DNA of 64,000 nt, from contig CAYHJF010000002.1 in assembly GCA_964356915.1 (NCBI GenBank), positions 148,522 through 212,521 on the forward strand, read 5' to 3'. Under the pieces are notes generated by a model that searched no databases, had not been told where the DNA came from, and saw nothing but the letters and a program-made list of their open reading frames with translations. This document shows, in pieces, positions 3,898 to 41,457 of this stretch. Each line of letters begins with the position of its first letter. Positions within the stretch are counted from its first letter, which is position 1. The translations under genes and the position numbers were made by a program. Source of the stretch: an uncultured Candidatus Saccharibacteria bacterium (lineage in GTDB: Bacteria; Patescibacteriota; Minisyncoccia; Ryanbacterales; GWA2-47-10b).

Positions 3898-5114
3898 ATG
3901 TTAGAAAATACTTTTTCCCAACGATTACGTTCGGCGATCTGGATTTCTGCCACCCTTTTATTTAGCGACTCCGATAGCATTGCCCGCGCTTCGTATGCTT
4001 TCTGTAGCAAATTATACAAAGCATCAACGGTTACCGCTTCACACGAAATAACATAGTCTTGCATCCCCAAATCCTCCCCGATACCTTCTGTTTTATATTC
4101 ATAGCTAATAGCAACAAATGGTATGCCCTGCGTTGCGGCAATAATATTCGAATGCATCCGCATCCCAAGCAATAATTCTAAACGACCGTAAGTATCTATG
4201 GCATCATCGACATCTTTCACAAAATGAACTGGCAATAAATTCACACCTAACTTTTCCAACTTACCCATAACACGTCTCACTACCCGTTCGTCGTCCTCTT
4301 CAATAAGTGTTGTGCTTACTTGCACAATAGGCTGGACATGCATGCCCCTCACCTTACAGAAAGTAGCCAAAGCTCTAACCACCTCCTCTTCAAAAAAAGA
4401 CTGTCGCTGCTTAGGCAACCAATTTCTCAATGTTAAACCAAGAACAAGATTTTCCCTTTTTGTAAGTAGTCGCTTCGACCCTAAGAGCGCGGAATCAAAA
4501 CCACGCCTTATATTAGAAAGTCTGTAACTTTCGAGCTTATGGTAAGAATAACCCTCACGCAAAATAACAAGGTTTAAATAAGACAAGGCTATAGCTGAAA
4601 TACGCTCTTGCCATTTATAATAAAATGGACCAAAGCTTATTGGCATTACAATAACTTTTTTACAAAGCAACCTAGCAGTGTAGATCATCAAAAGTTGCAT
4701 CATTAGATTTAGAGTCTGCTTGACCCCACTTTTTGACCGTAAATAACCTCCTCCGGGGAAAACTATTAGATCTGCCTGGGCATAATCATCAAGTAAATCT
4801 GCTAAATATGACTTCTTTGGTAAGCTAAAACTAAGTTGATAAAAAAATAGACGAACTAAAAATTCAAAGAACCTTAAAAAACGAACTCCTGCTTTAGGAT
4901 TATCAAAAACAACCCAAGAATATATTGTATGTTTAAGTGAACTAGCAAAAGAACTATCAGTATATAAATTTGGATCACTACTATGAACTACTGGCCGTAC
5001 GGATGGAAAAATATTTCTCAGCAGCTCTATTTCACTCAACAAAATAGCCTGATCTCCAGGATTTCTTGGACCAGTTGCGTGAGGAATCAAAATTTTTTTT
5101 ATTTCGTAGCTCAT
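3894..5114 (-). CDS. Polysaccharide pyruvyl transferase family protein (CsaB/WcaK-like)
   Basis: N-terminal 'GPRNPGDQAIL' (GxxNxGD) and C-terminal 'MRMHSNIIAATQGIPFVAISYEYK' motifs typical of the PS_pyruv_trans family. Confidence 0.7.
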   Translation of the reverse strand: MSYEIKKILIPHATGPRNPGDQAILLSEIELLRNIFPSVRPVVHSSDPNLYTDSSFASSLKHTIYSWVVFDNPKAGVRFLRFFEFLVRLFFYQLSFSLPKKSYLADLLDDYAQADLIVFPGGGYLRSKSGVKQTLNLMMQLLMIYTARLLCKKVIVMPISFGPFYYKWQERISAIALSYLNLVILREGYSYHKLESYRLSNIRRGFDSALLGSKRLLTKRENLVLGLTLRNWLPKQRQSFFEEEVVRALATFCKVRGMHVQPIVQVSTTLIEEDDERVVRRVMGKLEKLGVNLLPVHFVKDVDDAIDTYGRLELLLGMRMHSNIIAATQGIPFVAISYEYKTEGIGEDLGMQDYVISCEAVTVDALYNLLQKAYEARAMLSESLNKRVAEIQIAERNRWEKVFSNI

Positions 5115-6022
5115 CTTAATTCCTTCGATGACCTAGCAATATCCCATTTACTCCGCGTTGACTGCACATTAACAGGCAACAAGCGAGTTAATAACATTGC
5201 AAAACAATAATACAAAAAATAAATAGGGTGAGACACGAAGGTGCTTATAGTAAACTTTAATTTCAGTACAAGAGGAACCCTAAACTGCTCATCAATAAAT
5301 GCCTCTGAAAAATATTGAGAAAAAACTATTTTTGAATGCACAAAACGCTGGCTTTGTTTTAAATAGTCAAAGAAATTATCAGGAGATCGAAACATTACAA
5401 CAGCACTCTTCTGATAAGAAAAAGAATATTCTTGAGAGCGGCAACGCAAATAAGAGTAAACATCTTCTCCAACAACATCAACTGGCCACTTTAGCGTACT
5501 GGTAAATTCTTTTGAAAAGGCGCGAGCCGCTCCGCGACATAAATACAAATTATCTCTATTATTCATATTCAAAAATATATTCTCACGGAAATAAAAACCA
5601 AACGACATAACACGCTCAAAAAAAGTACCTCCCATCTGCGGCGACAAAGCAGCGCCTACAATACCTATATTCTCATTAGTATAAAATGGTTTTACTATTT
5701 CTCGTAAAAAATATTCGTTTGTTGGCAAAACGTCTGCATTCAACAAAACCAGAATATCGCCTTGAAAAAGTTTGAGAATATCATTTTGCCGCTCAGCCTG
5801 GCCTTTTCGATCTTTATTATCAACAACAAAAATTTTATCTGATGTTATAGACCGAGCCTCCACAACAGTCTTATCACTACTCCCATCTGAAATTACGATA
5901 ACTTCTTTCAGAACAAATCCTTCCTCTTTCTGACCTAAAAGAGCCGACAAGAGACGCTTGATGTTTGCCTCTTCATTGTAGGCGGGAATACCAATTGAAA
6001 GTGTAAAAAGATTCTTATTCAT
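5111..6022 (-). CDS. Family 2 glycosyltransferase (GT-A fold)
   Basis: 'SIGIPAYNEE' N-terminal motif and 'VISDGSSD' DXD-like region. Confidence 0.8.
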   Translation of the reverse strand: MNKNLFTLSIGIPAYNEEANIKRLLSALLGQKEEGFVLKEVIVISDGSSDKTVVEARSITSDKIFVVDNKDRKGQAERQNDILKLFQGDILVLLNADVLPTNEYFLREIVKPFYTNENIGIVGAALSPQMGGTFFERVMSFGFYFRENIFLNMNNRDNLYLCRGAARAFSKEFTSTLKWPVDVVGEDVYSYLRCRSQEYSFSYQKSAVVMFRSPDNFFDYLKQSQRFVHSKIVFSQYFSEAFIDEQFRVPLVLKLKFTISTFVSHPIYFLYYCFAMLLTRLLPVNVQSTRSKWDIARSSKELR

Positions 6023-6926
6023 ACGCTCTCCCTAAATTCTTTGTGGACAACGACACCCTCCAAAGCGGGTTTGCGGAGCCCCATAAAAAAGCGTGAAATC
6101 GTGCCCCAATATGCATTGCGCTATACGCGCCTACAAGTGTTGGAGATTCCCAGCCCGCCCGTACTAGAGCAATGAAATATTTTCTATGTGGAAAGTACTT
6201 ATGTCTTGCGATAACATCCGCAGATACATACTTTTGAAGTTGTTTATGGCTTGCAGCAAAACGTGCATACTTGTGAAAATAATCAAATACTGTCCCCGCG
6301 GAACGATAATATGTCACCGCGTCACCTTCAAACATCGTACGAAATCCAAGCTCTTTTGCTTTTAAAAATGTAAGTGCATCTTCAGGAGCATCAGGCATAA
6401 AACGCATCCTCTTTGCAAAAGACCGCGACAACGCTTTCCCAGAATGACAGAGAAAAAAATCACTCTCTACATTTTCCATGCATATGCGTTTCTTAACGCG
6501 ATCGGCGAGAGTCAGAGATCTTTCAATAAACCCTCCTCCTGACTGCGCCACGGAAAGCCCGAATACAAGATCTGCCGTACAGCTCCAAATCGGGTACGTA
6601 AGCAATGCAAGATAATCAACAGTCTCAAGCCTTGTGTCTGCTTCAAGAAATATAAGTGCATCGCTTTCAAATATTCCAAGAATTTCATTTTGACACTGCG
6701 CCTGACCAACACGTACATCTCTTTCGATCAAACGAACACGTACATCTGGCACCCCTCGAACAATATCTGCCGTTTCATCAGTACTTCCATCTGAAACAAC
6801 GATAATCTCTTTGATCATAAAATGTGGCGTTCGCTGAGTGCGCACCTCCTCAATAAGACGGGCGATATTCCCTTCTTCATTGTAAGCTGAAATGCCAATT
6901 GAAACGGTCAGCAGATTATTTTCCAT
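6015..6926 (-). CDS. Family 2 glycosyltransferase, tandem paralogue of 5111..6022
   Basis: 'SIGISAYNEEGNI...VVSDGSTDET', colinear with the neighbouring GT2. Start trimmed to the internal Met (MENNLL) so that it does not run deep into the upstream gene. Confidence 0.7.
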   Translation of the reverse strand: MENNLLTVSIGISAYNEEGNIARLIEEVRTQRTPHFMIKEIIVVSDGSTDETADIVRGVPDVRVRLIERDVRVGQAQCQNEILGIFESDALIFLEADTRLETVDYLALLTYPIWSCTADLVFGLSVAQSGGGFIERSLTLADRVKKRICMENVESDFFLCHSGKALSRSFAKRMRFMPDAPEDALTFLKAKELGFRTMFEGDAVTYYRSAGTVFDYFHKYARFAASHKQLQKYVSADVIARHKYFPHRKYFIALVRAGWESPTLVGAYSAMHIGARFHAFLWGSANPLWRVSLSTKNLGRAYE

Positions 6927-9327
6927 ACAAAATCTCCAGACACTCGGCTGATTTTTCATCCCACCCAAAATGACTTGCCCATAATACTGCTTCTCGTTCC
7001 ATGCCAGTACGGACTTCGCGACCATGGATAAGTTCGGAAATTTTTTCTGCAAACGCCTTGGCATCACCGTGCGGAACCAAATAACCAGTATGCGGGTTCC
7101 GTACTGAATCACGTAAACCCGGAACATCTGCGGCAACGACCGCTACTCCACATGCATTTGCTTCTATTGTTGTAATACCCCACCCCTCCATAAATGAGGG
7201 ATTTACAAAAACCCATGCGCGCTGTAACAAGCGCGTCTTTTCAGAGTCAGAAATACCTCCAGCGAATCGTACACTCTGACTAATTCCAAGTGTGCGCGTT
7301 AAATCTTTCAGTACCATCTCCTCCTCTCCTCGACCTGCAATCACCAATTCGGCTTCAGGAAATTTATGGACTACATACTTAAACGCGCGAAGAAGTACAT
7401 CGACAGATTTATATTTCTTGAGCCGGCCAACGTACACGACTAAGGGATGATCGCTCTTCTCACCCGGCCTCAACCGCGCGAGATCAACTCCAGGATGTAC
7501 CACTGAAATACGCGCCCCTCGAATACCCAGAAATCGCTCCATTCCTTTCTTTGTAGACTCAGAAATAGTGATAAATTCAACTCCTCGATATGCCCACGGC
7601 ATTACGGTGTTTTCAAGAAAGGCCGCAAAAAGCGCAAGAACTCTTGGTAACGAATGATAAAAAACATCTTGATGAACATGGAATAAAAGCGAATAAACTT
7701 TTTCCTTTGCGTATAGCGGAGCAAAAAATGGCACGCCGTTCTGACAGTCAACAATAATATCAAATTGCCCTCGAAAACGAAGTAGATAATAGAAAAATGC
7801 CCACACATACACAAAGTAAAACCCACCGCGCCGAATAATTCTTACCCCATCTATTTCTTCTTCGCGCTTTGATTTACCATCATTACCACAAAAAATTGTA
7901 ACGCTATTACCTGTAGCAACCCAACGCTTCGCAAATTCATGAATATGAATTTCAGCGCCTCCTGCAAATGCATGTTTGGTATCACGCCAATTAAAAATCA
8001 AAATACGCTTACCTGACTCTAGCGCCGGACGCTCACTCCGAAATGGTCGCGCGATATCAACAAGATCAATCAGCGCCCGTAAAATAAACTTTCCATTACG
8101 GAGTAATATGTGTAGCACCGTCATTACACCAAGCGTCAACACGCTTGAAAAAAGCATAACGTTTGAAATTGCAACGATAGAACTGTGCGATCGCATGATC
8201 CCAAGCGCCATCACGCACGCCATAACAAGCATTGTAAATGGAAACAGATAATGTTTGCGTGCAAGATGATACGCATTAAAGGCGCTGGCAAGCGTAAGAC
8301 ATGTGATCGCAAGCGCATACGTAGGCAAATACGGTAAAATGCCAAGCGCTCGCTCGCCGAGCAGTATGGGCACAATTTTACTGCCAAAAATACCAAGGGC
8401 GCTATACGCTCCAAACGTTAATACGCATGCCCCGGCAAAAATACGATAAAAGATTTTATTTGGATTCTTATGTGCGCCCTCAGCATTTGCAATAAACGTA
8501 ATCATGAATCCATTGAGCAACGAACCAAAAAAATAAATCATTTTCCCAACAAGAGACAATAAAGCATACTGACCCGCGAGTTCTGGATTGAGATAATGTT
8601 TGGCAAGCACTAAATCAAATGTTAAATATGCAATACCAGAAAATCCTGAAATAAACGAAGCTATGTAGAAAGTTTTTGGAAATACGAGTGGCTTTTCAAT
8701 ATCCTCGTCTTCTAACCGACGAGCCGCGCGCGATGCAAACCATTGCGCAACAAAAAGCCCCGCGATAAGTGAAGTAGGAAAAGACAATACAACCCACTCT
8801 CTCAATCCTCTCTCGACTAATATATATACAACGCCCAGTTTAACGATCGCTTCGACAAAAATCGCAAACCCAACTGCGGCAAAAAAGAACTGCCCTTGCA
8901 AGAACCCCTTACTCGCTGATGTGATAATAATAACCGGTAACACAAGCGCGAAAAGGCCAAGCACCCATGTATGCTCAATATGAAAAAACGCTCCTAACGC
9001 AGGAACAACGGCAAACCAAACAAGCGCCACCCCAAGCGATACAAAAAATGCTCTTCGCTGAATACGGCGAAAAAAAACAACGCTTGCCGATGCATGCCCC
9101 TCTCCAACTTCATATGAGGTTACATAATTAACAGTCGCCCCAAGCGCACCCGCCGCAATACCAATGAGCAATAATAATGTTCCAAAGAGCGTCAGTACAC
9201 CAAACTCTTCTGGAGCAAGTCTCCTACCGAGATATGCGTTAAAAACAAAATTCAAAAAATTTGCACCCATAAGTGCGCCCGTAAGAAATGCTCCTCCAGA
9301 AATTAGGCGCACAAATTGCTTTTTCAT
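6916..9327 (-). CDS. Fusion protein: N-terminal Wzx-like polysaccharide flippase (MOP superfamily, ~430 aa, multi-TM) joined to a C-terminal GT4 glycosyltransferase
   Basis: The N-terminus resembles polysaccharide-biosynthesis/flippase proteins with ~12 TM helices. The C-terminus carries the GT4 EX7E region 'PSFMEGWGITTIEANACGVAVVAADVPG'. The two halves form a single 803-aa ORF. Confidence 0.7.
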   Translation of the reverse strand: MKKQFVRLISGGAFLTGALMGANFLNFVFNAYLGRRLAPEEFGVLTLFGTLLLLIGIAAGALGATVNYVTSYEVGEGHASASVVFFRRIQRRAFFVSLGVALVWFAVVPALGAFFHIEHTWVLGLFALVLPVIIITSASKGFLQGQFFFAAVGFAIFVEAIVKLGVVYILVERGLREWVVLSFPTSLIAGLFVAQWFASRAARRLEDEDIEKPLVFPKTFYIASFISGFSGIAYLTFDLVLAKHYLNPELAGQYALLSLVGKMIYFFGSLLNGFMITFIANAEGAHKNPNKIFYRIFAGACVLTFGAYSALGIFGSKIVPILLGERALGILPYLPTYALAITCLTLASAFNAYHLARKHYLFPFTMLVMACVMALGIMRSHSSIVAISNVMLFSSVLTLGVMTVLHILLRNGKFILRALIDLVDIARPFRSERPALESGKRILIFNWRDTKHAFAGGAEIHIHEFAKRWVATGNSVTIFCGNDGKSKREEEIDGVRIIRRGGFYFVYVWAFFYYLLRFRGQFDIIVDCQNGVPFFAPLYAKEKVYSLLFHVHQDVFYHSLPRVLALFAAFLENTVMPWAYRGVEFITISESTKKGMERFLGIRGARISVVHPGVDLARLRPGEKSDHPLVVYVGRLKKYKSVDVLLRAFKYVVHKFPEAELVIAGRGEEEMVLKDLTRTLGISQSVRFAGGISDSEKTRLLQRAWVFVNPSFMEGWGITTIEANACGVAVVAADVPGLRDSVRNPHTGYLVPHGDAKAFAEKISELIHGREVRTGMEREAVLWASHFGWDEKSAECLEILYGK

Positions 9328-33140: not shown

Positions 33141-34306
33141 TTTTTCCGATATTCTTTCTCCAACTCCTCGAGCGCGCCTGCTTTGATGGCAGCTCGAATT
33201 TTACTCATCAAATCATTGAAAAAAAACACATTGTGCATCGTAGCAAAACGTCCTGCTTCGAGATTTTCTGCCTTAAACAACGCGCGTAATTCTCCTTTAG
33301 AAAGTTTCATGGTTCCGCACACAGGACATAAACACTCTGAATCAATCACCTCTCGGTCATCTTGATATCGTCCTTTGTGCAAATCAATACGTTCGCGACG
33401 CGTCCACAATGCCCCATGACGCGCCTCTCTCGTTGGAATGACGCAATCAAAAGTATCTATTCCGCGCTTTACTCCTTCAAAAATATCATCGATTTTTCCG
33501 ATACCTAATAAATGCCTATGCCTGTTTTCTGGCAACAACGGCACAGTCCAATCAAGCTCTCGAAATGTATCGCCTTTCTCACTCCCATATGAACTCCCGA
33601 AAGCTCCGCCAATAGCAAATCCCTCAAATGACATCGCGCCAATCGCGCGAGCGCTCTCACGACGCAAATCTTCAAAGACGCCTCCCTGGACAACGCCAAG
33701 CATCAGCTGATCTTTCCTTATTCGTGCTCGCAATGAACGTTCAGCCCAGCGATGTGTGCGCTCCATCGATTCTTTTGTATACTCGTATGAATGCACGGGC
33801 GAAGTACATTCATCAAACGCAACAATAAGATCGGCGCCTAGCCTTTCCTGGATAGCAACTGATTTTTCAGCATCTAAAAAATGTTGTTCTCCTTTCTGAT
33901 CTAAAAACGAAACTCCTTCTTCGGAGATCGTAACTCTGTTCTCTCGATTCTCTTTTTCAAATCGTGGCGAACCTCCGACTTTCCCCGCACCTCCTTCTCT
34001 GGCAGCACCGAAACTAAAAACCTGAAACCCACCTGAATCTGTCATGAGCGAACCACTCCATCCCATTGATTGATGTAGGCCGGGGTACTCTCCGAGCCCC
34101 TTCTCACCAAGTGCTTGCCATAAATGATATGTATTGGCAATAATCATCTGCGTATGCGTCGTCACAAGATCTTCGGGCGTGAGCGTACGTACTTTTGCAT
34201 GCGTACCAACAATTACATACGCAGGCGTTTCGACAACGCCATGAGTCGTATGTAATCTGCCTGTACGAGCGCGCGTATTTTTATCTTTTGTGGTTACTTC
34301 AAACAT
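33137..34306 (-). CDS. tgt: Queuine tRNA-ribosyltransferase
   Basis: High conservation, including 'DCVIPTREARHG' and the zinc site 'CLCPVC'. Confidence 0.9.
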   Translation of the reverse strand: MFEVTTKDKNTRARTGRLHTTHGVVETPAYVIVGTHAKVRTLTPEDLVTTHTQMIIANTYHLWQALGEKGLGEYPGLHQSMGWSGSLMTDSGGFQVFSFGAAREGGAGKVGGSPRFEKENRENRVTISEEGVSFLDQKGEQHFLDAEKSVAIQERLGADLIVAFDECTSPVHSYEYTKESMERTHRWAERSLRARIRKDQLMLGVVQGGVFEDLRRESARAIGAMSFEGFAIGGAFGSSYGSEKGDTFRELDWTVPLLPENRHRHLLGIGKIDDIFEGVKRGIDTFDCVIPTREARHGALWTRRERIDLHKGRYQDDREVIDSECLCPVCGTMKLSKGELRALFKAENLEAGRFATMHNVFFFNDLMSKIRAAIKAGALEELEKEYRKN

Positions 34307-34332
34307 GGAATATCATCATAGCAGGAGTTCAC

Positions 34333-34524
34333 GTGCCAAAAAAGCCACGCGTAAAACCGCATCTCAAGTCTGTTCACGTAAAATCATTACGTGACCCAGT
34401 TTCTCAAAGGCGCTTCAAAAAAGCGCGCGCATATTGGACCGAGCAAGCACGTCCTCTCATCGAAGCGTGCGAAAACGCAGAACGTCTTACTGCCGCGGAT
34501 TACGCCATCCGTATCACTATATAG
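34333..34524 (+). CDS. Small basic hypothetical protein (63 aa)
   Basis: AGGAG RBS 6 nt before a GTG; followed directly by a terminator hairpin. Confidence 0.3.
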   Translation: MPKKPRVKPHLKSVHVKSLRDPVSQRRFKKARAYWTEQARPLIEACENAERLTAADYAIRITI

Positions 34525-34531
34525 GGAAAGA

Positions 34532-34560
34532 CCCAATCTCTGATTGGGTTATTTTTTAAT
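34532..34560. terminator. Bidirectional terminator hairpin
   Basis: CCCAATC-tct-GATTGGG followed by TTATTTTTT. It sits just 3' of the plus-strand small ORF and overlaps the last codons and stop of the minus-strand RT gene. Confidence 0.5.
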
Positions 34561-35565
34561 CCCCAAAGCCTGCGTCCCAAGATAACTTCTCACTTTTTCT
34601 GTAAGCCGGTAACAATTTCCATGCTTCAAAATACCGAAATACGATTGGATCGTTTCCTCATTTCTTTGTTTTCGTTCAAGCATTCGAAATATTCTCTTTC
34701 TCGTAACAGTTCTCAATATTCGATGGTAGGGAAAATGCAACCACCCAAGAAAATCTACACCCGAAGCAAATGTTTGTATAAATACCTTGTCGGGGTGTAG
34801 CTGAAGGCGCAATCGCTCCCATAAATAATTGCTGATTTTGGGAAGAATGACTTTAAGATACTCTTTATCTTGCGACAAAATCACAAAATCATCAGCATAG
34901 CGGGTATAGTATTTAGCTTTGAGTTTGTGTTTCATAAATTGGTCAAACTCATTCATATAGATATTTACAAGAAGCTGGCTCGTGAGATTGCCGAGCGGCA
35001 GCCCCTTGCCTTTTTCTGTTGAGTAAAAACTGTCGACGATTTGAGATATCAGCCAGACAATATCTTTATCGAGAATATAGCTATTAATTACCTCCGTGAG
35101 GACTTTCTGGTCAACGGAAGCAAAGAACTTGCGTATGTCGCATTTCAAAACCCAAATGGTTTTTGTGTTATTTTCTGATGCTCGATAGGCAAACTCTCGA
35201 AACCTATCCATTGCCTTGTGTGTTCCCTTACCCAATCTGCATGAATACGAATCGACCACGAATGTCTTACCAAAAAATGAATAAAGTTTTCGATATAGAG
35301 CATGGTGGAGTAGTCTGTCTCTCACACTTGCTTTGTGAATATTTCTCGGTTTTGGGTCGGAAATATTGAATGCTTCGTAAGAGGAATGCGTGTAGGTTTT
35401 TGCTTTTAAATCATTGTGAAGCAAGATGATGTTGCTTATGAGATAGAGCTCAAATTGCTGGACATCCTTGCGATGCCGTTTGCCACGCACAAATTCTCTC
35501 CACGCATCAAGGAAATTTTCGAGAGAAATGATATCATCGTAGGTATGAGTGAATTGCCGTTTCAT
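34549..35565 (-). CDS. Reverse transcriptase of a diversity-generating retroelement
   Basis: RT motifs including 'YTRYADDFVIL' (YADD). Motif 4 is 'LGNLTSQ', the DGR-type [ILV]GxxxSQ rather than the GxxxSP of group II and retron RTs. 338 aa. Adjacent TR/VR pair. Confidence 0.8.
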   Translation of the reverse strand: MKRQFTHTYDDIISLENFLDAWREFVRGKRHRKDVQQFELYLISNIILLHNDLKAKTYTHSSYEAFNISDPKPRNIHKASVRDRLLHHALYRKLYSFFGKTFVVDSYSCRLGKGTHKAMDRFREFAYRASENNTKTIWVLKCDIRKFFASVDQKVLTEVINSYILDKDIVWLISQIVDSFYSTEKGKGLPLGNLTSQLLVNIYMNEFDQFMKHKLKAKYYTRYADDFVILSQDKEYLKVILPKISNYLWERLRLQLHPDKVFIQTFASGVDFLGWLHFPYHRILRTVTRKRIFRMLERKQRNEETIQSYFGILKHGNCYRLTEKVRSYLGTQALGIKK

Positions 35566-35601
35566 AGAAATCTCGCCGGTACGCCCCCCCCCCGACAGGT
35601 T

Positions 35602-35964
35602 TTGCCTGTTTTACAGAAGCTGAAGGGCGCATATTTACTGTGGTACCAATATTACCAAGCATTACCCAAACTCCATCGGTATTCTCTCGGCAAAAGGGTA
35701 GATAATCTTTTTATAGAAAGCATTGAAGCTATCGCAAGTGCAAGCTTTCTTGTGCGAGAAGAAAAGATGCCGTATGTGCGTCTTGCCATTCGTAAAGTTG
35801 ATACACTCAAGATATTGTTGATGATTTTGTGGGAGACAAAATCTCTTGATAACAAGAAGTATGTGGCTGTTTCCATAAAGATTGATGAGATTGGGAAAAT
35901 GCTTGGAGGATGGAACGGACAGCTTACGAAACAAAACTCCCCGCCAAAAGCTAGGGAGAAATGA
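35602..35964 (+). CDS. Avd-like four-helix-bundle protein (23S-rRNA-IVS protein family), DGR accessory protein, on the opposite strand to the RT
   Basis: 'LPKLHRYSLGKRVDNLFIESIEAIASA' and the C-terminal 'EIGKMLGGW' match the Avd/IVS family pattern (FPK.E.Y.L..Q.RRAA.SI..NIAEG ... EI.KML). Start uncertain: TTG at 35602 or ATG at 35545. Confidence 0.6.
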   Translation: MPVLQKLKGAYLLWYQYYQALPKLHRYSLGKRVDNLFIESIEAIASASFLVREEKMPYVRLAIRKVDTLKILLMILWETKSLDNKKYVAVSIKIDEIGKMLGGWNGQLTKQNSPPKAREK

Positions 35965-35970
35965 AGAGAG

Positions 35971-36092
35971 TTGCGAGCCGCGCCGCAGGGTTGTTGTCGT
36001 TCCAGTCGTTGTCGAGCCAGCTATAGTTCCAGTTCCACCTGTCGTCATTGAAGTAGAGGTAGCGGACGTACAGGTTGCCATCCGAGTTGCGG
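35971..36092 (-). repeat. DGR template repeat (TR); sense strand is minus
   Basis: About 122 nt, near-identical to the 3' end of the 36454..36972 gene. Every one of the 19 mismatches sits where the TR has an adenine. Contains many AAC codons. Confidence 0.75.
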
Positions 36093-36330
36093 TGATGTAA
36101 AGCGTGCCGTCTGTGCCACTGCCCTTTGAATACTCTCGAGGCTGTATCGAATTCGGCATCTTCAATGCCTTAACACGCAATACCAAGTATCTTCATTTTT
36201 TAAGAGTTACCATCGTACCACTCTGCCTGAAACCGTAATCGCAGACACTCTCGGTATCGGGGATACTGGGTTCGGTAGCAAGAAACCATAGTCTCTCACA
36301 TATTCACCTACTGCCAAGAATATTTTAGCA

Positions 36331-36366
36331 TAAAAAATTACCCCCACATCGCGATGATGTGAGGGC
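36331..36366 (-). terminator. Rho-independent terminator downstream of the DGR target gene
   Basis: GGGGGTG-like stem CCCTCACATC/GATGTGGGGG followed by TAATTTTTTAT on the minus strand. Confidence 0.45.
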
Positions 36367-36453
36367 ACCCGTCAGAGGCTATTCGGGAAAGCCTTTTGCC
36401 GTTCAAAGGACCCAGTTCCAAGGTCAGAGACCAAAGGAACCGAGTCCCAAGAA

Positions 36454-36972
36454 CTAACTTGCGAGCCGCGCCGCAGGGCCGATGTCGTCCCAGTCGTCGT
36501 CGAGCCAGCTACAGGACCAGTCCCACCTGCCGCCATCGAAGTAGAGGCAGCGGACGAACAGGCGGCCACCCGAGCGGCGGTAGATGGTGCCCCAGAAGAA
36601 GACGGCTTTGCCTTTCCATTCCTCGGGGATGAGGTACTGGTTGGCGAGGAAGTAGTCGAGGACATTGGCGTTGAGCATCGGCTCACGCGCGAGCTCCTTT
36701 CGGAGCTTGTTGCCCTCGATGACCTTGCCGTCCTTCTGGTTCGGGGAGAGGTGGAGCGAGACCTTAGCGGGGCCCCACTCGAACTGGCCACCCTTCTTGT
36801 GCTCCTCGACCTTCCAGCCATCGGGCGTGAAAGGATCGACATCACAGTCGATGATGTGGCGGACGATGGTGACCTCCGCACGTCCTGAGAGGAGGCGGTG
36901 TACACCTTCCATACCACCCAGCTTGTTGACAATGGCTTCCACCTGTCCGAGATCCAGTTCTCCGTACTTCAC
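36454..36972 (-). CDS. DGR target protein (172 aa) with the variable repeat at its C-terminus; function unknown
   Basis: AAGGAG RBS 6 nt before a GTG at 36972; the longer track ORF begins at an upstream ATG. The C-terminal ~40 codons are the VR. GC-rich. No signal peptide. Confidence 0.65.
   Translation of the reverse strand: MKYGELDLGQVEAIVNKLGGMEGVHRLLSGRAEVTIVRHIIDCDVDPFTPDGWKVEEHKKGGQFEWGPAKVSLHLSPNQKDGKVIEGNKLRKELAREPMLNANVLDYFLANQYLIPEEWKGKAVFFWGTIYRRSGGRLFVRCLYFDGGRWDWSCSWLDDDWDDIGPAARLAS
36459..36580 (-). repeat. DGR variable repeat (VR)
   Basis: Counterpart of the TR; differs from it only at TR-adenine positions (A to G, C or T). Ends in the GC-rich 'CCCTGCGGCGCGGCTCGCAA' segment just before the stop. 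Confidence 0.75.
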
Positions 36973-37126
36973 GGTTATCTCCTTTCGAGCTGTTTGCCCG
37001 ATTGCTTCTTGCTTCCCGCAAGCTGAGGGGCGTATGGCGTTCATGCCACAGCAGAAAATGTCCTAGAAATGAGGCGCTTTCTGCTGTGGCAAGTCGCAAA
37101 TAGATATTTAAAGAGCTAACGGTTGC

Positions 37127-37155
37127 ATTGTACTATATAATCAGTATAATGTCAA
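37127..37155 (-). promoter_or_regulatory. Sigma-70-like promoter upstream of the DGR target gene
   Basis: TTGACA, then a 17-nt spacer, then TACAAT on the minus strand, about 150 nt upstream of the target start. The resulting 5' UTR contains a 12-bp inverted repeat (37037..37082). Confidence 0.4.
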
Positions 37156-37274
37156 TGGCTAAAATTGGCCTTATTTCTAGGGCTTTTTTGAATAAAAATC
37201 ATACGGATAAAAAACAAACGCTAGATATATTGGAGATTATTTGAGAAAAAGATTTTAAGTTGGGGAATATACGT

Positions 37275-37466
37275 TCAATCCCCAAAACTTGCTTCTTGTG
37301 GCTTGTCGTCGTCATGTGCATCAAACGCGCCATTATGTTTACCGCCCGTACAACGACACTCCGTGAGCGGTAATCCATGCTTTGGACAATGCGTTGCCTG
37401 ACATACGCCTGGCTTTTCTGATTCCCCTCGACATCCACCGGTACAAATATAATGAATATCTTCCAT
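37275..37466 (-). CDS. Small Cys/His-rich protein (63 aa), possibly metal-binding
   Basis: 'CTGGC...C..HC..H....C.C' arrangement; a terminator-like hairpin (GGGGATT...ATTCCCC plus T-run) follows on the minus strand. Confidence 0.35.
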   Translation of the reverse strand: MEDIHYICTGGCRGESEKPGVCQATHCPKHGLPLTECRCTGGKHNGAFDAHDDDKPQEASFGD

Positions 37467-39282: not shown

Positions 39283-41301
39283 CTAGATCTCAATTTCCTG
39301 AACTGATTTTTCTTGCACTTTTCCATATCCACATGGTGGCCCCGGATCTGGAACACGCGTCTGATCCGTTGCACTGACAAGACCCGTTGCTGCGTGCCAA
39401 TGAAGTTCACCGCACCCTCCGGGGCCATGGTCTCCCTCCTGAATCAACTGATCAACAGGTAAATATTTTCCGTTATAACTAATTACTTTGATTTTTTTCT
39501 TTCCTACATTGGTACCGCCTGCAGCACCAGTCTCACTACCTCCCGCTGATCCGCCGGACGTGCCCGTACTTCCAGTCGGCGAAGTTACACTTGTTCCAGT
39601 TTTTTTCTCAACATCAGGACATTTCTTTGTACCCAATTGACCATCATTGCCATTTGGTTTGCCCGCCCCACCCTTACCACCATTGCCCGGACCACACCCA
39701 TCTCCACCGTTACCTCCATTACCACCCGTTTCATCTATAACAGTTCCCTCGGCACCATCACCTGAAGTCCCCTTACCACCCTTACCAGCTTTTGCGACCG
39801 CTCCTCCTCCGCCTCCACCATTGCCACCGGTAGGCTTGAGTTCGCACATGCCACCAGCTCCACCATCGCCCCCATGCGCATCAGCATTGCCACCCGCGCC
39901 ACCGTTTGCTACTCCTGTCGCACCAACAAGCTTCACGGATGCATCTCCCCCCAAACCACCGGTTGCCTCTGCGTTACCGCCCTTACCACCAGCACACTTA
40001 CATCCCGTGCCATTACCTCCTTTACCTGGACTTGCAACAGCCTGGCCTCCCCAACCACCATCTACCTGATCAATGGAAACATTTGAAATACCAGCGACCG
40101 AACCAAGTGCTGATAGTTCTTTTTTGTTGTTACCTCCCTTACCTGCGATTGCATTGGCGTCAGCACCCTTTTTCCCAGGACACGCATCTGTGCCATCCTT
40201 ACCATACGCAGTTGCGTTTCCTCCGTTACCTCCAACGCCCGGCACAACATGGAAGGAAACAATTTCAATCGTTCCCTCGGCAGTCATTTTAAAATTACCA
40301 GCCTCTCCTCCATCGCCACCCGTTGCCCGAGCAACTGGGTCACAATCTTTTAGCGTCTCGGCCGTACCTCCCACTCCTCCATCACCAAGCTCGAGACGAA
40401 AATTATTTAAGTGAATGTTGCCTGCCTTCATACGAAAACGAAAAGCATCTTCACCTCGATCACCCTGCACAGCGCACCCCTCTCCAATCGTAGAGCGCCC
40501 CTCACGTCCGTCAGGTCCTACAAGATGAAAATTTTCTAACGCAACATTGCCATCTTGTCCAAAATCAAAATTCAAAACAATTTTTTTAATATCTTGAGGG
40601 ACTCCTGGAATCTCAATGCCTTCTGGAGGAGTCGCCCCATCTCCAATGTGCCATGTACCTCCAATAACAATATTTGGAACACTCTTACCATCTTTATCAC
40701 GAGGCTCTTGTGCATGTGCCTCTGTTATCAAAGAAATTTTGCGCGAGCTATCACCGGATGGAATAACAGCAACCTGTTGAGTAACACCTTCCGCCACAAA
40801 CGGACCAATGCGCGTTCCTTTGCCTTCATTTTTCCCAGTCTCTTCATAGAGCGCGTCAAGGGCTCCTTCGCTCATGACTAGCCGATCGGGTGAAGAAACA
40901 ATCTGGACAGTTCCATTGGCAACAACAACCGCATCATTACCAAATTGGATACCATCAGTTGCTACAAGAGTGATTGCATTACTCGAACGCGTTGCGTCAC
41001 TCATATTCTCTCCGATTCCGCATCCAAGAACGCCATCAACCTTTATCGCGCCATTTACGATAATATTCAGCGGAGTCTCTTTACACACAAGAGCGCCCGT
41101 AATCCTCAGATTACCATTCACCGTCAATCGTCCTCCCTCAACAATCGCTTTTTCTTTCCCCGTGATCTCCTGATCCCCCTCGAGAGTTGCAACGGAAATT
41201 GTTCGAACGATCGTGTATGCGTCTTCCGACCGCGACCGATACCACCAAACACCCCCTCCGATCAATAAAATCATGCACAAACCTAAAATAATTTTTTTCA
41301 T
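39283..41301 (-). CDS. Secreted glycine-rich repeat protein with a beta-helix-like N-terminal region and a Cys-containing C-terminal domain
   Basis: Signal/TM 'MKKIILGLCMILLIGGGVWW'; long GGxGGxG stretches (GGNGGNGG, GGDGGAGG); C-terminal 'GPGGCGELHWH...PPCGYGK'. The proline-rich plus-strand ORFs across this region are antisense artefacts. Confidence 0.55.
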   Translation of the reverse strand: MKKIILGLCMILLIGGGVWWYRSRSEDAYTIVRTISVATLEGDQEITGKEKAIVEGGRLTVNGNLRITGALVCKETPLNIIVNGAIKVDGVLGCGIGENMSDATRSSNAITLVATDGIQFGNDAVVVANGTVQIVSSPDRLVMSEGALDALYEETGKNEGKGTRIGPFVAEGVTQQVAVIPSGDSSRKISLITEAHAQEPRDKDGKSVPNIVIGGTWHIGDGATPPEGIEIPGVPQDIKKIVLNFDFGQDGNVALENFHLVGPDGREGRSTIGEGCAVQGDRGEDAFRFRMKAGNIHLNNFRLELGDGGVGGTAETLKDCDPVARATGGDGGEAGNFKMTAEGTIEIVSFHVVPGVGGNGGNATAYGKDGTDACPGKKGADANAIAGKGGNNKKELSALGSVAGISNVSIDQVDGGWGGQAVASPGKGGNGTGCKCAGGKGGNAEATGGLGGDASVKLVGATGVANGGAGGNADAHGGDGGAGGMCELKPTGGNGGGGGGAVAKAGKGGKGTSGDGAEGTVIDETGGNGGNGGDGCGPGNGGKGGAGKPNGNDGQLGTKKCPDVEKKTGTSVTSPTGSTGTSGGSAGGSETGAAGGTNVGKKKIKVISYNGKYLPVDQLIQEGDHGPGGCGELHWHAATGLVSATDQTRVPDPGPPCGYGKVQEKSVQEIEI

Positions 41302-41457
41302 AAGTATAGTAAAAGCGTAAAAAGTCCTTTCATTTGAGCGTATCAAGCAACCTCATAAAAGTCGAGTACGAAACGATTTTTAGTATATTGTTTGCAAATT
41401 AGCCAAAGCCCGTTAGCATGGGGGCAGATTCCCTAACAAACGGAGGAATATCATACG

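Follow-up and report, generated by a model that had tools for sequence, protein, structure and literature searches.

The locus at positions 34549-37160 is very probably a complete and intact chromosomal diversity-generating retroelement (DGR) of the Patescibacteria (CPR) type, judging from its sequence, and its TR is part of a conserved predicted RNA unit of ~390 nt, which is new here. DGRs are gene cassettes in which error-prone reverse transcription serves to rewrite the tip of a single small protein. Taken as a DGR, the element contributes little, as CPR DGRs of the same layout have been catalogued by the thousands. What the comparison yields is a covariation-supported secondary structure for the TR-carrying RNA of a widespread family, with exact window coordinates for the promoter, the helices, the long-range duplex, and the 3′ hairpin. 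The window is the whole stretch of 64 kb that was analyzed, from a Patescibacteria MAG obtained from groundwater. All components named in the initial annotation as making up a complete DGR, that is, an RT, an inverted Avd-like gene, and a TR/VR pair, were found:

34549..35565, minus strand: DGR RT gene, 338 aa, with the motifs LGNLTSQ and YADD
35584..35593, no strand assigned: C10/G10 homopolymer, in the 36 nt that separate the divergent starts of avd and RT
35602..35964, plus strand: avd accessory gene, 120 aa, TTG start, on the strand opposite to RT, TR, and target
35971..36093, minus strand: TR, 123 nt, with 33 adenines and 8 AAC codons
36339..36367, minus strand: terminator-like hairpin downstream of the target, 12-bp stem followed by ATTTTTT
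36400..36453, minus strand: array of CTTNG-like units directly 3′ of the target stop
36454..36972, minus strand: target gene, 172 aa, GTG start
36459..36581, minus strand: VR, 41 codons near the 3′ end of the target that leave out the final 2, the VR end being 2 codons before the stop
37127..37155, minus strand: promoter-like site TTGACA-17-TACAAT upstream of the target, 11 of 12 consensus positions matched, by consensus match only

The order is target/VR, TR, inverted avd, and RT, with RT, TR, and target on the minus strand and avd on the plus strand, and the RT, avd, and target ORFs are all intact. The neighboring genes have housekeeping functions (TGT, CdaA, tRNA-binding protein), and a 20-mer from the RNA leader described below matched >120 metagenome contigs versus only 4 IMG/VR contigs. 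The layout had been taken for atypical; it is not, since architecture B3, TR-(avd)-RT with avd on the reverse strand, is reported for 90% of CPR DGRs in the accessible text of Wu et al. (2018, NAR 46:11, PMC5758913). By window coordinates the B3 core order is present here, and both order and orientation are identical wherever avd and RT were both detected (~28 of the species-representative loci).

On the coding (minus) strand, TR 36093..35971 and VR 36581..36459 align without gaps over 123 nt; the duplicate reported earlier as ~122 nt is confirmed, its true length being one base more. Every one of the 19 mismatches is at a TR adenine (13 A>G, 3 A>C, and 3 A>T), with zero differences at non-A template bases, which bears out the earlier claim of mismatches confined to adenines in a template rich in AAC codons. 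The chance of placing 19 out of 19 mismatches on the 33 adenines is ~8e-14 (hypergeometric P). The mismatches affect only codon positions 1 or 2 of the target and are spread over 16 codons. With every A masked, the TR pattern matches only the TR and VR places in the 64-kb window. Among 39 related cassettes, 635 of the 674 TR/VR mismatches (94%) are at TR adenines. The GC-rich 3′ end CCCTGCGGCGCGGCTCGCAA is invariant and common to TR and VR, an IMH-like stretch of 20 nt is identical in both, and a hairpin (z = -5.5) then follows only the VR. Such a GC-rich, IMH-like VR end with an inverted repeat after it fits what is expected of a DGR, the IMH role being putative.

The GTG start of the target at 36972 has an AGGAG 8 nt upstream and agrees with the NCBI annotation and with all homologues; the protein is identical to NCBI MEK7642999.1. 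Its AlphaFold model has a pLDDT of 94.7, and no family was matched in Pfam or NCBIfam. Both the length of 172 aa and the absence of a recognized family stand as first annotated. The target family has >1,500 homologues of 172-190 aa, and 38 of 80 species-representative target loci have an adjacent TR. The target is apparently a small cytoplasmic protein. Its small size and lack of a signal peptide or family had been offered as unusual; the accessible text of Roux et al. (2021, PMC8144416) describes small targets with no signal peptide and no known domain as the norm in DGR clade 2 (CPR). The specific family was not found named in the accessible text of Wu et al. (2018) and Roux et al. (2021), and may correspond to one of the published "unknown VR" classes. 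As had been noted, target and TR are GC-rich (61 and 57%, respectively, against 45% in the whole window and ∼60 versus ∼45% in the initial annotation); the RT and avd have a GC content of 39 and 41%. The GC3 of the target is 0.79, and high GC3 is conserved among targets.

In the window, the CTTNG-like array can form a 13+4 bp hairpin rich in G.U pairs (RNA MFE -28.5 kcal/mol, z = -5.5). In the family, CTTNG occurs 2.8-3.7 times per 80 nt, compared with a background of 0.36, at a spacing of 7-8 nt, after the VR and not after the TR. RNAalifold gave no consensus structure for the post-VR region; as the hairpins are out of register between species, we describe a CTTNG periodicity and not a structure. 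The target-specific array is a candidate for recipient-site recognition.

The ~390-nt RNA unit has a predicted promoter of the extended -10 type, a folded leader of 220 nt, a duplex that brackets the TR at long range, and a terminator-like hairpin inside antisense avd:

36320..36330, minus strand: predicted extended -10 promoter-like box TGCTAAAAT of the TR RNA
36212..36308, minus strand: two 5′ leader hairpins (36308-36274 and 36261-36212)
36190..36198, minus strand: 5′ strand of the long-range duplex, AAATGAAGA, inside the invariant motif AAAAAATGAAGATACTTGG
36097..36183, minus strand: multi-helix RNA domain whose 12-bp closing stem surrounds one hairpin plus another stem; it ends ~4 nt short of the TR
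35959..35967, minus strand: 3′ strand of the long-range duplex, TCTTCATTT, 3 nt past the TR, pairing with 36190-36198
35927..35958, minus strand: GC hairpin (CTCCCTAGC/GGCGGGGAG) with TTTTGTTTCG after it, resembling a terminator on the TR strand, in the last ~10 codons of antisense avd

Over 40 sequences, 95.2% of cells are paired in the predicted structure, compared with 82.2% after shuffling and 39-51% when slid, and 51 of 69 pairs show compensatory changes; none of 500 shuffles reached any of these measures. With 127 sequences, 91.2% of cells are paired (79.0% shuffled) and 57 of the 69 pairs are compensatory. Compensatory pairs number 23 out of 30 in the leader hairpins, whose helices were confirmed on the 127 sequences, 10 out of 12 in the closing stem of the multi-helix domain, 4/5 and 4/4 in its inner helices, and 4 out of 7 in the GC hairpin. 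In the 9-bp long-range duplex, 6 pairs have changed on both sides, and 92.8% of cells are paired. The GC hairpin is predicted in ~36 of 38 family loci and is kept in loci without a detected avd; it is followed by GAGTTT or a T-run in 114 of 133 cassettes. A TGnTAnnnT box is present in 102 of 130 distinct cassettes, in 77 of these at the same distance from the leader motif. Both the promoter box and the U-tract keep their position among the cassettes. The part of the RNA 3′ of the TR comprises only a 15-nt linker, one hairpin, and the U-tract (~45 nt), beyond which lies the antisense avd coding sequence. No family of Rfam 15, including the RT motifs, matched positions 34300-37300 at E up to 1, and we found no published description of a TR-containing folded RNA of this kind.

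Several candidate features were rejected. The leader is not taken for a small ORF: over the 40 sequences its stop-free runs are inconsistent and only 30-78 codons long, and its substitutions maintain base pairing by compensation. A helix proposed by RNAalifold between CCAG of the leader and CTGG inside the TR, as well as a 3-bp helix inside the TR, were dropped, as neither had changes on both sides. The alignment gave no support to priming through pairing of the TR 3′ end with UACUUGG or with the U-tail of the hairpin.

The ORF between the RT and the repeat, initially called Avd-like, passes the cut-off of Pfam bAvd (PF22296; 42.7 bits, cut-off 40) with the full profile covered. With NCBIfam DivGenRetAVD (NF033474) it scores 64 bits over profile positions 1-102 of 104, below the equivalog cut-off of 80. 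The C10/G10 tract in the gap between avd and RT is the sole G/C run of at least 8 nt in the 64-kb window. A G/C homopolymer occupies the same place in nearly all species loci having both avd and RT; overall, it was found in 71 of 109 distinct cassettes, with lengths of 6-14 and a chance expectation of ~0.01 per window, and its length varies between contigs that are otherwise identical. No clear promoters for RT or avd were found in the 36-nt gap. The conserved tract is a candidate for regulation.

From the conserved sequence elements, we infer that the TR RNA would be a transcript of its own of ~390 nt, starting at the extended -10 promoter (~36315) and ending at the hairpin and U-tract (~35928) inside antisense avd. 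The duplex of 36198-36190 with 35967-35959 would form a loop holding the TR and the multi-helix domain, much like the avd:Sp duplex in the DGR RNA of the Bordetella phage. An RT-Avd complex would bind the TR RNA and copy the TR into cDNA, misincorporating opposite adenines, and the cDNA would replace the VR. The recipient could be marked by the common GC-rich 3′ end together with the hairpin and the CTTNG array, both of which are specific to the VR. As a result, up to ~21 C-terminal codons of the target would be diversified.

We tentatively propose that in CPR B3, the largest natural DGR lineage, the DGR RNA might be a stand-alone, permuted non-coding RNA gene of ~390 nt, with the protein-binding, cDNA-stop, and possibly priming elements located 5′ of the TR and not in a 3′ spacer, and that the hypermutable G/C homopolymer between avd and RT might control the entire mutagenesis machinery as a slipped-strand switch or rheostat; at present we regard this as a possibility to be entertained. 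If true, a permuted stand-alone RNA frees avd and RT for separate expression. A rather unlikely alternative is an RNA of the Bordetella kind, with the TR co-transcribed with the RT through antisense avd, the post-TR hairpin being only the Avd-binding stem-loop, priming and RT-binding elements lying downstream, and the upstream conserved region being a 3′UTR or regulatory element of the target. In its favor, Handa et al. (bioRxiv 10.1101/2023.10.23.563531) report that 207 of 278 DGRs, among them CPR elements, have upstream/downstream duplexes and predicted Avd-binding stem-loops immediately 3′ of the TR; in addition, a separate RT promoter was not detected here, and the hairpin with its U-tract could be a leaky terminator. 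Still, the target terminator and the positionally conserved extended -10 box part the target from the leader, and the covarying helices are upstream of the TR. Past the hairpin, the constraint on the sequence is that of avd coding on the opposite strand. Moreover, TR, leader, and hairpin persist together in loci without detected avd or RT.

A second alternative, which we consider improbable, is that the VR was diversified in the past and the cassette no longer works in this population. Two independent assemblies of the same population have no VR differences, though they differ at 2 other positions. Similarly, no VR differences were found in four near-identical pairs of related cassettes from different samples, and the strain-specific adenine-masked VR pattern yielded 0 matches to further VR copies in metagenome contigs; exact-protein look-ups return identical VRs only, by construction. 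However, identical consensus VRs are weak evidence, as minority VR variants are hidden in consensus assemblies. Loss of the element does occur in this family, as in other species TR, avd, and RT are all missing within 4 kb of about half of the target homologues, loci L030, L047, L054, and L066 retain the TR with no avd or RT detected, and locus L002 has only a partial TR adjoining a recombinase. In the window, by contrast, the ORFs are intact, the catalytic motifs are present, no non-A mismatch is seen across 123 nt, and the RNA helices, promoter box, and hairpin are all preserved.

The RT matches Pfam RVT_1 (E 5.4e-23), and its relatives in related loci are 47-67% identical. Its best solved relative is bRT of the Bordetella phage (8ub7, E 5.5e-44, residues 5-309), while group II and retron RTs score 3e-16, so that the enzyme is nearer to DGR RTs than to either of these. 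Both motifs given in the initial annotation, YADD and the DGR-type LGNLTSQ, are present and align with YMDD and IGSLTSQ of bRT. The motif 4 ending in SQ, the YxDD, and the closeness to bRT point to an RT of the DGR clade. That the locus is instead a retron, group II, or defence RT lying by chance beside an ordinary duplicated segment is hardly credible: the top NCBIfam score of the RT is to a group II intron model (137 bits), but NCBIfam appears to contain no DGR RT model and this score is far under the cut-off of that group II model (300), bRT ranks first among the solved relatives by 28 orders of magnitude, the mismatches are adenine-restricted with an Avd adjacent, and no group II or retron RNA family was found with Rfam.

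Among known systems, the CPR B3 DGRs (PMC5758913) and DGR clade 2 (PMC8144416), as far as their accessible descriptions go, show target/VR, TR, inverted avd, and RT in an identical order and orientation, with no difference in gene layout, and likewise have a Patescibacteria groundwater host, a chromosomal location, and a small target lacking both a TM segment and any known domain. The conserved structured RNAs next to DGR RTs, RT-10 and other RT-associated motifs (Weinberg et al., 2017, PMC5737381; Rfam), are comparable in their position, yet they differ in that Rfam 15 gave no match to them in the window at 34300-37300. A further known class is that of the DGR variable proteins with a C-type-lectin fold (Mtd, 1yu0; TvpA, 2y3c).

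The BPP-1 DGR (mtd-avd-TR-brt) shares with this element an RT that is ~40% alignable and has the conserved motifs, an Avd, A-to-N changes between TR and VR at codon positions 1 and 2 with AAC codons, and a GC-rich invariant VR 3′ end followed by an inverted repeat. The present element departs from BPP-1 in the inverted avd placed between TR and RT, in the IMH-like 20 nt being the same in both repeats, and in having a small cellular protein as target instead of a phage tail fibre; 3′ of the TR it has antisense avd in place of a 140-nt spacer.

The Bordetella DGR RNA (avd 3′ end, TR, Sp; bRT-Avd, PDB 8ub7 series) likewise has an upstream/downstream duplex closing the TR and a stem-loop beside it, just 3′ of the TR. 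Its large structured part, with Avd-binding and bRT-binding stem-loops and the priming A56, lies 3′ of the TR, whereas in the RNA described here the covarying helices precede the TR, over ~220 nt, and only ~45 nt follow it; the ~140-nt structured 3′ spacer with priming and RT-binding elements is absent. The upstream duplex strand is here ~100 nt before the TR, outside the 40-nt window analyzed by Handa et al., and this RNA seemingly has its own promoter and terminator. To our knowledge, the Bordetella phage element is the only DGR for which it is known in detail what reverse transcription requires of the RNA. The present family offers a differently organized RNA on which the Bordetella RNA rules can be tested directly.

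The template repeat (TR) and variable repeat (VR) of this diversity-generating retroelement (DGR) align without gaps on the minus strand (TR 36093..35971, VR 36581..36459). The repeat of the initial annotation is thus real, at a length of 123 nt and not ~122 nt. As had been claimed, the mismatches are restricted to TR adenines (19/19; 13 A>G, 3 A>C, 3 A>T), with none at C, G or T, and in the target frame all of them are at codon position 1 or 2. The chance of 19 random positions all hitting the 33 adenines of the TR, which contains eight AAC codons, is ~8e-14. Homology stops at the invariant GC-rich CCCTGCGGCGCGGCTCGCAA, after which the VR continues with GTTAG (stop codon) and the TR with CTCTCTTCATTT. 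The adenine-masked TR pattern matched only the TR and the VR, and hence there is no second target within the 64-kb window. Over 39 cassettes, that is, related DGR loci, TR adenines account for 635 of 674 TR/VR mismatches (94%).

The cassette comprises the following genes and intergenic run:

34549-35565, minus strand: reverse transcriptase (RT) ORF, 338 aa, matching Pfam RVT_1
35584-35593: C10/G10 homopolymer, taking up a large part of the 36 nt that separate the starts of the divergent genes avd and RT
35602-35964, plus strand: accessory gene avd, matching Pfam bAvd (42.7 bits, above the cut-off of 40)
start GTG at 36972, minus strand: target gene, 172 aa, with AGGAG 8 nt upstream of the start

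The solved structure closest to the RT is the Bordetella phage DGR RT (bRT, 8ub7; E 5.5e-44, residues 5-309), while group II and retron RTs yielded 3e-16 or worse, in agreement with the DGR type assigned initially. The LGNLTSQ and YADD motifs align with IGSLTSQ and YMDD of bRT. The top NCBIfam match of the RT is a group II intron model at 137 bits, far under the cut-off of 300. The Avd-like gene is upheld by the Pfam model; the ORF also covers the NCBIfam DGR-Avd model entirely, at 64 bits, under the cut-off of 80. The target start agrees with the NCBI annotation (MEK7642999.1) and with all homologues. The target had been described as matching no recognised family, and indeed neither it nor 74 relatives matched any in Pfam or NCBIfam.

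The layout, on the other hand, had been called atypical. However, the order TR-(avd)-RT with a reverse-strand avd is architecture B3 of Wu et al. 2018 (PMC5758913), which comprises 90% of their set from Patescibacteria (CPR). Roux et al. 2021 (PMC8144416) described a Patescibacteria-restricted DGR clade, whose targets typically have no recognisable domain, transmembrane or other. We found 1,508 database homologues of the target (170-200 aa), nearly all unnamed and from Patescibacteria, and 383 species-representative genomes encoding a relative. Among the best 80 loci of these 383 genomes, 38 carry a TR of ~123 nt roughly 320-400 nt past the target stop, and avd(-) and then RT(+) come next in every locus with both genes within reach (~28). 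In the remaining loci, the 4 kb around the target homologue contain none of TR, avd and RT. The window DGR is an ordinary member of a well-populated CPR DGR class, of which the features called atypical are the norm; the finding itself is real and was correctly interpreted.

The genes flanking the DGR are housekeeping ones, encoding TGT, diadenylate cyclase CdaA and a tRNA-binding protein. An ORF at 39283-41346 (minus strand, 687 aa) has a hydrophobic N-terminal segment and long Gly/Asn/Ala-rich GGxGG repeats, with local GC up to 60% and no Pfam match. In related loci L005-L007 (~4055-6147), a ribosomal-protein/secY/adk cluster ends in two ORFs matching Peptidase_M24 (methionine aminopeptidase) with the target homologue between them, and no TR, avd or RT is present within 4-5 kb. 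In loci L002-L004 (~5873-6933), it is followed by just the first 55 nt of the TR (9/9 mismatches at A), and a serine recombinase and a LAGLIDADG-like ORF occupy the expected place of avd and RT; this looks like a disrupted cassette.

In an alignment of the window and 39 related cassettes (40 sequences), the ~220 nt 5' of the TR (the leader) are highly conserved and vary by compensatory changes. On the minus strand, we identified:

36367-36339, minus strand: terminator-like hairpin and T-run of the target
36330-36322, minus strand: promoter-like extended -10 box, TGCTAAAAT
36308-36274 and 36261-36212, minus strand: two leader hairpins
3' of these hairpins and before the closing-stem domain, minus strand: A-run and nearly invariant motif AAAAAATGAAGATACTTGG
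36198-36190, minus strand: AAATGAAGA, 5' strand of a long-range duplex, complementary to TCTTCATTT
36183-36097, minus strand: domain closed by a 12-bp stem, ending ~4 nt before the TR
between the TR and TCTTCATTT, minus strand: linker CTC
35967-35959, minus strand: TCTTCATTT, 3' strand of the long-range duplex
35958-35937, minus strand: GC hairpin, then TTTTGTTTCG

The -10 box (TGnTAnnnT) is present in 102 of 130 distinct cassettes, in 77 of these at one fixed distance, and 114 of 133 have GAGTTT or a T-run after the 3' hairpin. This hairpin lies within the last ~10 codons of avd on the opposite strand; loci in which no avd was detected still have it, along with the TR and the leader. As the promoter-like box is conserved and a terminator-like hairpin is present, we infer from the sequence a stand-alone TR RNA of ~390 nt. 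An Rfam 15 search of the region yielded no family match, and no conserved ORF was found in the leader.

Covariation was counted over 69 pairs of the 40-sequence alignment, with shuffling and sliding of partners as controls. Paired cells comprised 95.2%, compared to 82.2% in shuffled and 39-51% in slid controls; 51 of the 69 pairs had changes on both sides, compensatory cells numbered 410 against 110 expected, and none of 500 shuffles reached the alignment on any of five measures. With metagenome contigs added (127 distinct sequences), the values were 91.2% versus 79.0%, 57 of 69 pairs, and 1,153 versus 323 compensatory cells. Since these contigs were chosen by a 20-mer that includes the 5' strand of the long-range duplex, only the 40-sequence alignment is informative for the latter. 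The two strands AAATGAAGA and TCTTCATTT covary: for instance, G-C is replaced by A-U in L037, L040 and L059, U-A by C-G in L059 and L060, and A-U by G-C in L034 and L071. A leader 20-mer matched four contigs classed viral in IMG/VR (L211-L214) and, among the matches listed, >120 metagenome contigs. Some loci have two leader-motif copies or a leader several kb away from the target homologue or on the opposite strand (L096, ~4034 and ~6401; L021, ~7708; L075, the latter case), which hints at multi-cassette or remote-target arrangements.

The window locus is also present in a Patescibacteria MAG from groundwater of Hainich well H41 (GCA_038065535.1). For this population, the public contig (L001/L090; GCA_038065535.1, ENA ERZ1292624) stops inside avd, indicating an assembly break at the DGR. 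The independent H41 assembly and the window are identical over 4,429 nt save two SNPs, 36179 and 36173, both within the 12-bp closing stem, where the H41 alleles strengthen pairing (U.U to A-U, U.G to C-G). The VR is identical in the two assembled consensus sequences, and a masked-VR scan of metagenome contigs found no further copies. The intact ORFs, intact RNA and absence of non-A mismatches argue, at the level of sequence, for a functional DGR.

Three further features are conserved. The C10/G10 homopolymer is the sole such run in the window, and of the species loci that have both avd and RT, nearly all carry a G/C run of 6-14 (mode 9-10) at this site, as do 71 of 109 distinct cassettes (~0.01 expected). 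Its length differs between contigs that otherwise match exactly: across 2,284 nt, L188 and L207 differ only in having G10 and G9, and the pair L131/L210 has G10 and G11. Slipped-strand variation is a reasonable reading, while assembly error at homopolymers may also account for such differences. The avd frame is open through the run in every locus checked; in several loci, neither side has a canonical start codon in frame.

Directly 3' of the target stop lies an array of CTTNG motifs, conserved in targets with or without an adjacent TR. The 80 nt past the stop contain 2.8-3.7 motifs (background 0.36), spaced mostly by 7-8 nt; none follow the TR. In the window (36400-36453, minus strand), the array forms a strong, G.U-rich hairpin (z = -5.5). 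Finally, GC3 of the non-VR part of the target (36582-36972, minus strand) is 0.79, compared to 0.37-0.42 for RT, avd and neighbouring genes. An excess of this kind recurs in 70 of 73 species (loci L002-L089; mean +0.245, p = 8e-13), including in homologues without an adjacent DGR, while the RT resembles the host. Strand-specific adenine depletion was ruled out as its cause.

The RNA anatomy and these three features are what the analysis adds, and we found no description of them in Rfam or the DGR literature searched. In the Bordetella DGR RNA, a duplex between the final 20 nt of avd and spacer nt 59-70 loops out the TR. Next after the TR comes an Avd-binding stem-loop, and the 140-nt downstream spacer holds the priming adenosine and an RT-binding stem-loop. 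Handa et al. (bioRxiv 10.1101/2023.10.23.563531) report that comparable stem-loops and duplexes are predicted for 207 of 278 DGRs, among them CPR ones, by single-sequence folding of just 40 nt 5' and 100 nt 3' of the TR. The window's family shares with Bordetella a duplex bracketing the TR and a stem-loop adjoining it. Unlike in Bordetella, however, most structure lies 5' of the TR, with the upstream duplex strand ~100 nt before it and only ~45 nt following it.
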